Shown piece after piece: positions 17,392 to 23,189 of a stretch of DNA of 64,000 bases (position 1 is its first letter; each line of letters opens with the position of its first letter). The stretch lies in the NCBI GenBank assembly GCA_048882045.1, contig JBHLRZ010000014.1, positions 18,708-82,707 on the forward strand, read 5' to 3'. The position numbers were made by a program, and so were the translations under genes. This stretch comes from Candidatus Thorarchaeota archaeon. Its GTDB lineage: Archaea > Asgardarchaeota > Thorarchaeia > Thorarchaeales > Thorarchaeaceae. The notes below the pieces were generated by a model. The model made no database searches, was not told the DNA's origin, and saw only the letters and a program-made list of their open reading frames with translations.

Positions 17392-18171
17392 TCATATTGT
17401 AACTCGATTTCGCCACTGTTCGAAGATGGCCATATACATGCATTCCTGAGGTGGGATCCACATCTCAGAAGAATCAAAGGACTGATCCACAAACTCGACA
17501 GGCGCATCTCTGATTAGTGCAGCTGGAATCGACTCATCTGACTCGCCCATCACAGCTGTGCATGCTGATGCAAGATTGTCAGCGATGGCTCGTCTAGTAA
17601 TCCTCAGTACGTTACCAAACAGGTCTGTCCTACCTCTATCATCTGCAACCGGTCGAAAGCCAGCATTTCCAAGAGCCATACCAACATTTCCCAGTCTCAG
17701 AGGTTGAGTGCGACTGTCAATGACAAGAACTCCGATAGTCTTTCCAAGTCTGTTCTTGACCTCATTCCTAATTCTCTCCGCACTCTCTCTAGGGTTGGCT
17801 GGCAGGAGAGAGGCATACCCTGGAGGGACATTGGACTTGTCGACTCCAGCATTTGCCATCAGGGTGTTACTCTTGATTGTCAAGACAACGTGAGGAATAC
17901 CTCCCAGGATTTCATCTGCTTCGTTCAATACGAGTTCTGCAACCTCAGGAATCATTTCGTATTTCCTCGCAAGATCTCGCGCTTTTTCTGAAGCGACAAC
18001 ATTCGAGAGCTTGACTACTTGGCCTTCAGTTGTACCCAGGGGAGTTTCAGCCACACCGAGGATGTCATTGTCCTGAATCTCGATTCCCTTATTGGTGAGA
18101 CCTTCGAGAAGTACATCTAGGAGATTGTCTTCTTCAGTAATGATTCGAGTCTTGATTGGAAAAACCTGCAT
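17392..18171 (-). CDS. cofE: Coenzyme F420-0:L-glutamate ligase (CofE family)
   Basis: ANAGVDKSN, LLP.NP..SA, VIDS...PLRLG, D.RG..DLFG..LRIT..AIAD.LAS, GES.E..P. Confidence 0.88.
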   Translation of the reverse strand: MQVFPIKTRIITEEDNLLDVLLEGLTNKGIEIQDNDILGVAETPLGTTEGQVVKLSNVVASEKARDLARKYEMIPEVAELVLNEADEILGGIPHVVLTIKSNTLMANAGVDKSNVPPGYASLLPANPRESAERIRNEVKNRLGKTIGVLVIDSRTQPLRLGNVGMALGNAGFRPVADDRGRTDLFGNVLRITRRAIADNLASACTAVMGESDESIPAALIRDAPVEFVDQSFDSSEMWIPPQECMYMAIFEQWRNRVTI

Positions 18172-18213
18172 TGCGCTGACCCAACTTGAGAGTCTCGAAG
18201 TACGAAGATAAAT

Positions 18214-19626
18214 TCATCCACCGCGAGATTTTTGGAGCTTCATCCTTTCGGACATGATGCACTTGTCACCCTTCCGACCCCCCATTGGACATCTCTTTGT
18301 GCCCATGGAGTTCATGCATCTTGCAGCAACCGCAGCTCCCATTGCTAGACCATCTTCCACGAAGAGGATATCGTGCATATCAGTCCAAAGAGATCCATCA
18401 TTAAGATGTAGATTTTCTGTGATGAGTTTGGGTTTCTGTCCAGTAATGATTGCACGCCCCGTAAGTCCCAAAGATGTATCTTTTAGAATTAGCCCCTCTG
18501 ATTCGATAATCGATATCAAGCGTTGAACGATTCCAGCCTGGATCACATCGATCACTGTAAGCAGTGTATTGGTGTCACTAGCATACACAATCGATTTCCC
18601 AAGTTTAGTAAGGTCATCTAGCCCAGATCCGTTGGTTCCTGCATCAACGCCAACTAACGTAGTTCCTGACTCTTCAGCAGCGCTTGCGTCTACAGGAACA
18701 GTACCGAACCGTTCGACTGATTTTGAAACCTTCTCAACCCTGATGATGCTATGGGCTTTCTCTTCCCATTTTGAATCAATCTGCAATTGCTGCGACTTGT
18801 TAGATTGTGGGATGTCTAGAACACTACCAGTCTTTGCATCTATCAGTCCAGTGCCCTTTGCCAATGCATCCGGTATTGCCCCTGCAAGCCCAGCAAAGGA
18901 GCCAATTGTTCTGGCATAGGGGAACCCGTCGTCTGTCACACGTCCTGCAAGAGTGGTCCCAAAATCAAGTGTAAAAACAGGATTTCGAAAATCAATGTCA
19001 GTGCTCTTTGCTGCACCCTTCAGTCCGGCACTGACAAGCTCTCCCTCCATCTCGTTTGCAACAATCTCAGTATTTGAAGGAGGAAGTGAACTCGCTACAG
19101 CCCCATCAAAGTACACCTTCTTTAACCAAGTATAGTCACGAATATCCGGAGGAAGATTCTCTGCTGAGATTGATGCAGTCATTTTCCTTGGAGGAATTCC
19201 TGCATTAAGACATCCATCAGCCAGAGCCTGCACAATAGTTCCTACTTCACTAGGACTAGCAAAACTTGCAGTCACTCCAGTTGAGCGGACCACAAAGTGG
19301 AGGTCACGCTCAATGTCAAGTCGCGCTTTCTTGAGAGTAGTTCTGAGAATGTCTGACACCAGTTCCGATACTGACTCTCTAGTAAGCTCCACACCAAAGA
19401 CAGTTCTTCCAAACACTTCTTCCTCTTCTTTGGGATGACGGACATCTCGAGTCATACGAACCTCTTTTTCGATTTCATAGATTTCAGCGGTTTCTAGATT
19501 TGTAGTCACAAGGACACACTTTGTGGTCGTGTTACCCAATTCAACAGATGCAACTGTGTAGAAAGGACCTTTCCGAAGTGATGATACTCCTATAGAACGA
19601 GGTCGTACTACTCGATCTTTTTTCAC
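18214..19626 (-). CDS. Methanogenesis marker protein 14 (DUF2114, actin-like ATPase fold)
   Basis: VASVELGNTTTKC, HFVVRSTGV, NEMEGEL, LDFGTTLAG, GLAGAIPDAL, EDGLAMGA, C-terminal PMGG....C. Confidence 0.85.
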   Translation of the reverse strand: MKKDRVVRPRSIGVSSLRKGPFYTVASVELGNTTTKCVLVTTNLETAEIYEIEKEVRMTRDVRHPKEEEEVFGRTVFGVELTRESVSELVSDILRTTLKKARLDIERDLHFVVRSTGVTASFASPSEVGTIVQALADGCLNAGIPPRKMTASISAENLPPDIRDYTWLKKVYFDGAVASSLPPSNTEIVANEMEGELVSAGLKGAAKSTDIDFRNPVFTLDFGTTLAGRVTDDGFPYARTIGSFAGLAGAIPDALAKGTGLIDAKTGSVLDIPQSNKSQQLQIDSKWEEKAHSIIRVEKVSKSVERFGTVPVDASAAEESGTTLVGVDAGTNGSGLDDLTKLGKSIVYASDTNTLLTVIDVIQAGIVQRLISIIESEGLILKDTSLGLTGRAIITGQKPKLITENLHLNDGSLWTDMHDILFVEDGLAMGAAVAARCMNSMGTKRCPMGGRKGDKCIMSERMKLQKSRGG

Positions 19627-19643
19627 AATCTGTCACTTCCATA

Positions 19644-21285: not shown

Positions 21286-22203
21286 CTATTCAAACGATGG
21301 GGGTTCAAAGAGTTCTCTGTCAATGTCCAATACACTGTTTGCTTCGGCTATGGTTGCGGCTATGGCATTCGAAATCAGAGCTGCTGATGTGAATATCTCT
21401 TTGGCATGAGATAATGAGCCAAACATTATGGCATCAGTTGCAAAGAGTTGTGCAGCCACAGTCGCTGCAACCACCGTCGAGATTCTTGTCGTGTCATCAT
21501 CCAATCCGGGTTGTCGGATGAATCGCCAAGCGGAAGGTGCATTGTGAGGAGCTAGACATGTTGGAAGTCCCAATTCTGATTTCACAGCAATGGTGGTCCT
21601 ATGCTCCAGTCCATAGCCAGAACCTACGGGCATCGTAGCCGGATCGACGATGGTTTTCTTTATACCCAATGACTCGGAGAATGTTAGTACATCACGTATT
21701 GTATCCATTCTATCTGGGAGCGTAGTGGCCTTTGGTGACCACCCAAGGATGACTGCCATGTCCAATGCACTAGCTTTGAGTTTGTCCTTCTCATCATCCT
21801 TCATTGACAGATTGATGGAGTTGAAGACCGCTCGGTCAGTGAGTCCAGTTTCTTCGCAGTATTCAATTGCACGAATGCGAGCGTTTGCATTTATTGACTC
21901 GAACATGAAGGGTCCTTCAAGATTCTCTGCTAGCCAAGAGAGATGATTCTCCATTGCCCGAGGAGTTCTACCAAATGCTTGAATCATCAATGGGAGTCCA
22001 GTTTTGTCAGACATTAATTGTGCAGTGTCAATCCATGACTTCGCGACTTCTTTGTCGAATATACCCTCTCGAGTGTCCTCCATTATTGACTGACCCTTGA
22101 AGAAGAGACCCCCAATCAGAACTGTGGGATTCTCACCAGGATTACCACCAATAGGAATACCTCCAAAGTCAAACACTTGTTGCTCTTTCTTGAAGACAAA
22201 CAC
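21286..22203 (-). CDS. mtrH: MtrH-family pterin methyltransferase, divergent copy 2
   Basis: VFVFKKEQ, IGGNPGENPTVLIGGLF, VFNSIN, GLPTCLAPHNAPSAW; GTG 22203 follows a GAGGTGA ribosome-binding site. Confidence 0.85.
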   Translation of the reverse strand: MFVFKKEQQVFDFGGIPIGGNPGENPTVLIGGLFFKGQSIMEDTREGIFDKEVAKSWIDTAQLMSDKTGLPLMIQAFGRTPRAMENHLSWLAENLEGPFMFESINANARIRAIEYCEETGLTDRAVFNSINLSMKDDEKDKLKASALDMAVILGWSPKATTLPDRMDTIRDVLTFSESLGIKKTIVDPATMPVGSGYGLEHRTTIAVKSELGLPTCLAPHNAPSAWRFIRQPGLDDDTTRISTVVAATVAAQLFATDAIMFGSLSHAKEIFTSAALISNAIAATIAEANSVLDIDRELFEPPSFE

Positions 22204-22207
22204 GATA

Positions 22208-23143
22208 TCACCTCTCAACCTTCCGTCTAGGATACAAATTAGCACGTTTGACAAGCTCAACAATACTCTCTGGCCAACCTATGCCCATCAAGTGTAGTCC
22301 ATTGACGCCATCGATCTCACGTATCACCTCTATGGTTTCAAGGGCGATTTGAATACCTTCCGCTTTCATTGCCTGAATCTTGGCCTGCTCCTCTTCTTGA
22401 CCTTTTGCAGAATCATCAAGTCGTCGAATGAACTCATCAGGAACCTGAATATCTGGAACATAGTCATTCATGAAGTGCGCCATCTCTGAGTCACGAAGCG
22501 GGATTATACCCACCAAAATGTTCAGTTTGTTGTCAGTTTGTCCCATGAATCTCTGTAAGAGAACAGGATCAAAGATCGCTTGAGTCTGAAAGAACTGTGC
22601 TCCCGCTTCGAATTTCGCTTTCATTCGACGTTGTTGATTTTCTAGTGATGCATCATTTGGATTGATGGTTGCTCCGAGATAGAACTCTGGTGTTCCCTCC
22701 AACTCATCACCCACAGAGTCAACTCCAGTGGAGAGATGTTTCGCCAGAGCAAGAGCCTCAAGAGTATCTAGATCGTTGACCATCTTTACATGAGGATGCG
22801 TTCCGAACCGAGTAGGGTCACCAGCCATGATGAGAAGATTACGCACACCAAGTGCGTATGCGCCATAGAGCTCGCTCTGAAATGCGATCTGGTTTCGGTC
22901 CCTTGTTGTCAGATGGAGGATAGGTTCAGCGCCTGCCTGAAGTACAAATGTGGAACATACACTGCTGCTCATGGTTGGAACTCCACGGGCATTGTCAGGT
23001 ACATTAATGGCATCACAGAAATCACGTATCATTTCAACACGATTTATTACTATTGATGAATCCGCCCCATGAGGTGCTCCAATCTCTCCCGTAACTACGA
23101 AATCACCTCTATCTAGTAATTGCTTGAGTCGTGTTTCGAGCAG
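22208..23143 (-). CDS. metF: Methylenetetrahydrofolate reductase (MetF family)
   Basis: FVVTGE, DAINVPDN, HLTTRDRN, GVRNLLIMAGD, K..AGAQFFQTQ, GIIPL, GLHLM; start is CTG 23143 or GTG 23158. Confidence 0.9.
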   Translation of the reverse strand: MLETRLKQLLDRGDFVVTGEIGAPHGADSSIVINRVEMIRDFCDAINVPDNARGVPTMSSSVCSTFVLQAGAEPILHLTTRDRNQIAFQSELYGAYALGVRNLLIMAGDPTRFGTHPHVKMVNDLDTLEALALAKHLSTGVDSVGDELEGTPEFYLGATINPNDASLENQQRRMKAKFEAGAQFFQTQAIFDPVLLQRFMGQTDNKLNILVGIIPLRDSEMAHFMNDYVPDIQVPDEFIRRLDDSAKGQEEEQAKIQAMKAEGIQIALETIEVIREIDGVNGLHLMGIGWPESIVELVKRANLYPRRKVER

Positions 23144-23189
23144 TTTGCAGACCTCCACAAATTCCTTCTCTGACTGACATGTGTTCCCC

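Follow-up and report, generated by a model that had tools for sequence, protein, structure and literature searches.

What the corrinoid protein MtrA and the methyltransferase MtrH do outside methanogens, and what marker 14 (DUF2114, also called m26) does anywhere, are standing questions, and both are addressed by an operon in the genome of a Candidatus Thorarchaeota archaeon (GCA_048882045.1). The window, that is, the whole stretch of 64,000 nucleotides that was analyzed (contig JBHLRZ010000014.1, positions 18,708 to 82,707), carries at 15958-23158 seven co-oriented genes on its minus strand, which were identified with Pfam and NCBIfam as metF-mtrH'-mtrA-mtrH-marker 14-cofE-larC, where mtrH' denotes a second, divergent member of the MtrH family. 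This locus raises the question of why a single MtrA should be accompanied by two MtrH-type enzymes and a MetF. We propose that the operon may encode a membrane-free B12 methyl relay derived from the methanogen methyltransferase Mtr, in which two specialized MtrH proteins act on one MtrA and which would be wired as a bridge between the folate and methanopterin pools. This wiring is put forward tentatively, at somewhat short of an even chance; the more general claim of a working soluble corrinoid relay, with both MtrH proteins active and an ATPase as accessory, is considerably more probable.

The presence of MtrAH and DUF2114 in Thorarchaeia is already published. Adam et al. (2022; PMC9635834) describe the same genes in the same lineage, namely "canonical MtrAH" without membrane subunits and m26, as remnants of methanogenesis, and they tie m26 to Mtr by distribution, phylogeny and synteny, the Thorarchaeia clade included. 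Neither MtrH' nor fixed active-site changes, a linkage to metF, cofE or larC, or a mechanism was found in the searchable text and supplement of that paper. Valentin-Alvarado et al. (2024; PMC11291895) call the activity of MtrA and MtrH in non-methanogenic Asgard archaea unclear. Our literature search found no description of a second MtrH paralogue or of its link to metF, and no tested function for DUF2114. New here are the features of MtrH', an inventory of one-carbon (C1) enzymes that has no other outlet for methyl-folate, and the fold and invariant cysteines of marker 14.

Two MtrH paralogues in a conserved operon

The genes from metF to cofE are separated by 4, 15, 4, 17 and 42 nt when the corrected starts of mtrH' and mtrH are used, which confirms the tight co-oriented run described in an earlier, sequence-only reading of this DNA. 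The true start of mtrH' is a GTG at 22203, four bases past the stop of metF (22208..23158; PF02219, 115.6 bits), a gene of the methylenetetrahydrofolate reductase (MTHFR) family of methylene-tetrahydropterin reductases. This start is supported by the length of the orthologues, all of which have 305 aa, and the resulting protein opens with MFVFKK, compared with MFVFEK in MtrH, whose gene starts at ATG 20579. A scan of species-representative genomes recovered the order metF-mtrH'-mtrA-mtrH-marker 14-cofE-larC in ∼58 Thorarchaeota loci, across which identity drops to 45% for MetF and to 58% for MtrH'. Since the order is kept in ∼58 species genomes while MetF identity falls this far, the arrangement is not due to chance, and operon conservation, proposed earlier as a check, is thereby established.

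The two MtrH-type proteins of the window are 34% identical to each other. The product of mtrH (19644..20579) scores 390 bits on the Pfam model and 404.8 on TIGR01114, above the mtrH equivalog cut-off of 271.4, and is referred to here as canonical MtrH. MtrH' (21286..22203; PF02007, 240 bits), a divergent pterin:corrinoid methyltransferase of the MtrH family with 305 aa, remains below the same cut-off at 238.4. When the sequences of solved structures were searched, MtrH matched Methanosarcina mazei MtrH (9qtp) with 278 bits and MtgA with 194 bits, and MtrH' matched the same two proteins with 180 and 140 bits, respectively.

In M. mazei MtrH, the pterin is bound by the tetrad D103, N129, D196 and N230, the site is further lined by T32, Q75 and H229, and a basic patch formed by R239, K242 and K243 has been proposed to hold the charged tail of tetrahydromethanopterin (H4MPT) or tetrahydrosarcinapterin (H4SPT) (PMC12774963). 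Residue conservation was scored over ∼59 orthologues of each Thorarchaeota paralogue. The residues matching D103, N129, D196, N230, H229 and T32 are invariant in both paralogues, with the sole exception of the change from Asp to Glu122 in MtrH'. Canonical Thorarchaeota MtrH retains D121, N147, D214, H247 and N248 as well as the tail patch in the form WLRK.KK. In MtrH', N148, D207 and N241 are invariant, and the first Asp of the tetrad is replaced by Glu (E122) in 59 of 59 orthologues; Glu occupies this position in 3 of 99 MtrH-family representatives. The RKxKK patch is lost from all MtrH' proteins, which read (K/R)F(I/L)(K/R)QPG(L/F)DDE. The paralogue differences first noticed in the window sequence (FLIDS versus FMFES and GSGVHN versus CLAPHN) are real and are fixed across orthologues. 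Judging from the catalytic pterin residues that both retain, neither paralogue looks like a dead subunit, and the possibility that one MtrH is an inactive structural protein, named by the sequence-only reading as one of the cases that would refute it, is not favored by these residues.

The relationships within the MtrH family were analyzed in a tree of 99 rows and in a reduced, careful tree. MtrH' forms a long branch, which in one tree is weakly sister to the canonical MtrH/MtxH group (Shimodaira-Hasegawa-like approximate likelihood ratio test, SH-aLRT, 82) and in another lies inside it (ultrafast bootstrap, UFBoot, 87; SH-aLRT 96). This group contains the MtrH of Methanosphaera and Methanosarcina, MtxH and Thorarchaeota MtrH, and MtrH' falls outside the bacterial clades. 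A homologue search with MtrH' returned Thorarchaeota orthologues only, and in a 50%-representative protein set MtrH' forms a single full-length cluster, the next matches having 36% identity. These results point to MtrH' as an offshoot of canonical MtrH that is confined to Thorarchaeia, and the second paralogue and its fixed changes are new. In our reading, MtrH' probably arose from canonical MtrH, and its pterin site was then remodeled under purifying selection; such remodeling agrees with an altered ligand and is not what a dead scaffold would show.

That the fold can serve tetrahydrofolate (H4F) is known from MtgA of Desulfitobacterium hafniense (6sj8/6sjn), a member of the MtrH family with the four pterin-binding residues. 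However, by the bit scores of the structure search given above, MtrH' is no closer to MtgA than to MtrH, and it scores 150 bits on the MtgA model NF047990, whose cut-off is 550. The partner of MtgA is, moreover, a Rossmann-type corrinoid protein and not MtrA.

The genome contains a third MtrH-family gene, which is isolated on another contig (C5:65933-66763; compare L116:8877-9791) and groups with Bathyarchaeota sequences. It is flanked by genes for DNA alkylation repair and for a peptidase and by an open reading frame without a family match, with no corrinoid protein nearby.

Methyl-pterin enzymes of the host genome

To place the operon in its metabolic setting, the C1 enzymes of the host genome were inventoried; this genome of 3.6 Mb is 93% complete, and all whole-genome negative results refer to it. 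MetF is the sole MTHFR of the genome, and within the family 55 of 59 genomes have just one copy. With the MetV-adjoining MetF of ANME-2 (anaerobic methanotrophic archaea) it shares 34% identity. On the folate side, Fhs and FolD are present and clustered with a formiminotransferase-cyclodeaminase (FTCD), and GcvT adjoins a bacterial-type dihydropteroate synthase (DHPS) and the archaeal MptE. On the other side, Ftr, CdhD/E and a true Mer (439 bits, cut-off 349) were found. A role of MetF as a substitute for Mer, as proposed for ANME-1, was rejected in view of this true Mer.

Neither MetE (Meth_synt_2) nor the homocysteine-binding S-methyl_trans domain was found in the genome, and methionine synthase was rejected on these grounds as the methyl acceptor. 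MetH and AcsE were likewise not found, because the sole Pterin_bind protein is DHPS. With MetE, the homocysteine domain, MetH and AcsE all not found, the methyl-pterin of MetF has no recognized consumer except an MtrH-family enzyme. No argument for the wiring MetF-MtrH'-MtrA-MtrH is stronger than this lack of another consumer taken together with the position of mtrH' four bases past metF.

The neighborhood of metF varies among Thorarchaeota. A Cys-rich metV lies upstream of metF in ∼21 other loci (among L018-L063, e.g., L055:6344-6937). The closest relatives of the window genome are, like it, without metV, and genes for peptide-binding proteins abut their metF. In the window, two tandem family-5 solute-binding proteins of 600 aa are encoded between hflX and metF (23190-26891). 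In both, the Pfam match begins only in the middle of the model, and homologues of them flank metF or metV in other Thorarchaeota loci. Elsewhere in the genome, the single MttB-superfamily gene (C20:6493-7887) contains one in-frame TGA, which could be a sequencing error, the mark of a pseudogene or a recoded codon.

The soluble corrinoid carrier and marker 14

MtrA (20584..21270; PF04208, 195 bits) is encoded by a single-copy gene. Its GH77 motif aligns with that of Methanothermobacter marburgensis MtrA (8q3v), and H77 is invariant in 55 orthologues. The C-terminus has no hydrophobic helix, in agreement with the earlier statement that this MtrA lacks a membrane anchor. A linker of ∼25 aa is followed by a tail of ∼50 aa (tail region 20584-20763) that is conserved in Thorarchaeota and absent from MtxA. 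In the AlphaFold2 model, the core is confidently predicted, the linker is disordered with a predicted local distance difference test (pLDDT) below 50, and the tail forms β-strands that reach a pLDDT of 45-62. In the Mtr complex of methanogens, an MtrH homodimer docks on the N-terminal strands of MtrB, only the membrane-proximal MtrH contacts MtrA (PMC12774963), and MtrA swings between MtrH and MtrCDE (bioRxiv 10.64898/2026.07.03.736320). The modeled tail of Thorarchaeota MtrA may be a docking element that substitutes for the N-terminus of MtrB.

The sequence-only reading had pointed out that the window holds no mcr gene and no mtrCDE. The former extends to the whole genome, in which McrA (MCR_alpha) had no match. 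As to the latter, MtrE, the one subunit among MtrB-G that was searched for, was not found genome-wide; Adam et al. (2022; PMC9635834) report Thorarchaeia to be without the membrane subunits of Mtr. Compared with methanogen MtrABCDEFGH (8q3v, 9qtp/9qts), the Thorarchaeota proteins share the corrinoid fold and His ligand of MtrA and the pterin residues and tail patch of MtrH, and an MtrA that swings between two docking sites is likewise proposed here from genes and models. They differ in that there is no MtrA anchor, sodium pumping, coenzyme M or methyl-coenzyme M reductase (MCR), the search for membrane subunits having covered MtrE. In place of MtrCDE a second MtrH paralogue is proposed, and the MtrA tail may replace MtrB.

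A soluble MtrA-MtrH pair is also found in MtxXAH of Methanosarcinales, but this system includes MtxX (marker 4) and a single MtxH, and it has neither a DUF2114 neighbor nor the MtrA tail. On the MtxA model NF010654, Thorarchaeota MtrA reaches 167.6 (cut-off 279), and tblastn with ANME-2 MtxX, a weak test, gave no match to MtxX in the genome. In four close ANME-2 genomes (L067:1845-12057, L068, L152 and L154), MtxXAH lies ∼2 kb from purN-glyA-folD-folP-metV-metF, and mtxX-mtxA-mtxH is accompanied by a conserved 354-aa protein without a family. In more distant Methanosarcinales the mtx genes are kept, the 354-aa gene is kept in all but one, and the folate neighbors are gone. ANME-2 MtxXAH can be regarded as a second soluble MtrAH-type pair beside folate genes, which we take as a lead and not as support. 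A contig labeled Anaerolineales (JAIWAT010000007.1, L155) carries mtxA-mtxH genes 72-79% identical to those of ANME-2 and is probably a binning error.

Marker 14 (18214..19626; TIGR03285, 622 bits; Pfam, 640 bits) has no sequence relative among solved structures, as judged by a search of the PDB sequences. An alignment of 34 sequences from Thorarchaeota and Halobacteriota, which are 47-74% identical to the window copy, shows the motifs GNTTTK, DFGTTLAGR and DDGLA.G to be invariant. The same holds for C437 and C456, located in a C-terminal motif, while C37 and C139 are nearly invariant. The AlphaFold2 model (pLDDT 88) has the fold of the acetate and sugar kinase/Hsp70/actin (ASKHA) superfamily, which, with the conserved GNTTTK and DFGTT motifs, bears out the actin-like ATPase motifs noted earlier. 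Foldseek gave the best E-values to RACo, with template modeling (TM) scores of only 0.27-0.34 and generic kinases close behind. A second aligner returned Z scores of 17 for CoaX and the ATPase subunit of benzoyl-CoA reductase, 15.4 for HadI and 12.3 for a diol dehydratase reactivase. Marker 14 thus has the ASKHA ATPase core in common with the RACo/RamA activators and the HgdC/BcrAD ATPases, but it shows no sequence similarity to them and carries its cysteines in a C-terminal motif of its own.

A link between marker 14 and the corrinoid carrier is suggested by gene order and by modeling. In methanogens, 6 of 30 loci have the marker 14 gene immediately after mtrH. A predicted complex of marker 14 with the corrinoid domain of MtrA scored 0.60 (best control 0.00), the runs agreeing on at least 78% of contacts and the partners having a pLDDT of at least 85. 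Of 80 solved complexes, 58 passed the mark applied to such predictions, as did 2 of 110 mismatched pairs; only 7 of the solved complexes passed it with a score of 0.60 or less, compared with both of the passing mismatches, and the verdict is one of weak support. Our best guess from these models is that marker 14 may be an ATP-dependent chaperone or activase for MtrA. The function that the sequence-only reading had hoped to give marker 14 is in this way weakly advanced, its link to Mtr having been part of the published account (PMC9635834).

Two further genes complete the operon. The cofE paralogue (17392..18171; PF01996, 235 bits; TIGR01916, 191.5 against a cut-off of 180.65) encodes a gamma-glutamyl ligase of the F420-0 type by its equivalog score, with F420 or a pterin tail as possible substrates, and keeps its place beside the mtr genes in every complete locus. 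Of the three CofE-family ligases in the genome (C14:36213, C5:132421 and C3:81699), it alone accompanies the mtr genes; the other two lie in uninformative surroundings. CofE homologues can glutamylate folates, as does chlamydial FolC2, and a role of the operon cofE in building a pterin tail is conceivable. The larC-like gene (15958..17232; PF01969, 295 bits; LarC1 and LarC2 matches), annotated as a nickel-insertion protein, is the last conserved gene of the cluster and is syntenic in ∼45 loci.

The proposed folate-methanopterin wiring and its alternatives

In the proposed relay, soluble MtrA would hold its cobalt via His77 and would be served by two catalytically intact, specialized methyltransferases of the MtrH type. 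For canonical MtrH, the partner in methyl exchange would be the methanopterin-type carrier on which Mer and carbon monoxide dehydrogenase/acetyl-CoA synthase (CODH/ACS) act. MtrH' would form the second docking site for MtrA, in the position held by MtrCDE in methanogens, and would trade methyl groups with the methyl-pterin that neighboring MetF produces or uses up; the likeliest candidate for this pterin is methyl-tetrahydrofolate supplied by Fhs, FolD and MetF. The tail would tether MtrA to the MtrH/MtrH' pair, so that the corrinoid domain could swing between two outward-facing active sites, and marker 14, as an ATP-binding ASKHA protein, would dock on MtrA and maintain or restore the active cobalt.

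Of the two-pterin bridge suggested by the sequence-only reading, several parts stand: both pterin sites are retained and differ from each other, there is one MtrA, and a folate branch is present alongside enzymes of the methanopterin type. A number of results weigh against the wiring as a whole. The committed enzyme of methanopterin biosynthesis, β-ribofuranosylaminobenzene 5'-phosphate (β-RFAP) synthase (TIGR00144), was not found in the window genome, nor in 60 of 61 sampled Thorarchaeia genomes, with one passing the cut-off; among 81 Asgard genomes, 34 pass it with the same model, and several families do so without exception. An archaeal DHPS-like enzyme is also absent from the genome, because there is only one Pterin_bind protein. 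With β-RFAP synthase not found, a separate methanopterin pool is therefore not demonstrated, even though Mer, Ftr, CdhDE and canonical MtrH are retained. Thorarchaeia may produce the carrier by an unrecognized route or take it up from their surroundings; otherwise, their "methanopterin" enzymes must act on another compound. The gap lowers confidence in a clean H4F/H4MPT bridge, and the two differently built pterin sites still stand.

Further points on the same side come from metF and its surroundings. The closed genome CP070761.1 (L053, 6677-14362) has no MTHFR anywhere and retains mtrH' and Fhs; its order is hflX-mtrH'-mtrA-mtrH-marker 14-cofE-larC, with hflX directly upstream of mtrH', and it amounts to a naturally occurring deletion of metF. 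In the window genome, tblastn found no metV, which usually accompanies a MetF of this type. The standard potentials of the methylene/methyl couples are about -200 mV for H4F and about -320 mV for H4MPT, which makes a methyl flow from folate to methanopterin uphill. We infer the pterin specificity of each paralogue from its residues, and the acidic patch of MtrH' is not an obvious fit for a polyglutamate tail. Regarding marker 14, its fold matches are generic for ASKHA proteins, and it lacks a ferredoxin-like domain of the RACo kind.

The dimeric state of MtrH in Mtr adds another point of this kind and makes possible the alternative that survives best, in which a heterodimer of MtrH and MtrH' with a single pterin replaces the homodimer, or MtrA engages only one of the two, the acceptor being encoded outside the operon. 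In the methanogen complex, only one copy of the MtrH homodimer meets MtrA (PMC12774963); the missing marker of methanopterin biosynthesis suggests one pterin pool; and one lineage has mtrH' without metF. Against such a heterodimer, the invariant catalytic residues of both paralogues argue that both carry out chemistry, an identical ligand would hardly account for the fixed change from Asp to Glu or for the missing tail patch, and no acceptor enzyme was found in the genome when MtrE, MetE and the homocysteine domain were searched for. We consider this arrangement possible but doubtful.

It is improbable that the operon is instead a methylotrophic funnel, in which MtrAH would feed methyl groups from amines or methoxy compounds into the Wood-Ljungdahl pathway. 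In the literature, such a role is the usual hypothesis for MtrAH of non-methanogens (PMC9635834; PMC11291895), and the genome does contain the MttB-superfamily gene mentioned above and several small B12-binding proteins. These genes, however, are located on other contigs, and the third, Bathyarchaeia-like MtrH (C5) would be the more natural partner for them; no substrate methyltransferase is found in or beside the operon in any of the ∼58 loci; and the linkage to metF would be left unexplained.

A split methionine synthase, in which methyl groups would pass from MetF via MtrH' and MtrA to a homocysteine methyltransferase, with marker 14 as the reactivating component, is less probable still. 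The modules correspond to those of MetH, which has a pterin, a B12 and an activation domain, and in NCBIfam MetF matches best to the MTHFR portion of a bifunctional homocysteine methyltransferase/MTHFR. Archaeal core-MetE uses methylcobalamin, and MtrH has been named as its possible supplier (PMC7005905). Against such a pathway stands the result that no Meth_synt_2 or S-methyl_trans protein was found in the 93%-complete genome, and it would leave canonical MtrH without a role. Finally, a decaying remnant of ancestral methanogenesis with no coherent present function, in line with the term used by Adam et al. (2022; PMC9635834), is very improbable, because intact frames throughout, a strictly kept order and invariant active-site residues across genomes in which MetF identity goes down to 45% indicate purifying selection and not decay.

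The soluble relay with two specialized MtrH proteins on one MtrA, tentatively wired between folate and methanopterin, thus remains our preferred reading. In its most far-reaching form, MtrH' would be the first archaeal methyl-H4F:corrinoid methyltransferase and part of a reversible, soluble folate/methanopterin-type transmethylase, and DUF2114 would serve every Mtr-bearing archaeon as the missing ATP-dependent activase or chaperone for the cobamide of MtrA; we regard this extended version as rather unlikely.

The operon represents a four-protein, soluble version of the catalytic core of Mtr whose expression and assay would require no membranes. With it, the pterin specificity of MtrH, the shuttling of MtrA between two sites and the upkeep of the corrinoid cobalt could be tested directly. 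The β-RFAP synthase gap calls into question the standard metabolic reconstructions of Thorarchaeota. If the two paralogues indeed serve two carriers, the operon would show how Asgard archaea couple the bacterial-type and the archaeal-type halves of the Wood-Ljungdahl pathway.

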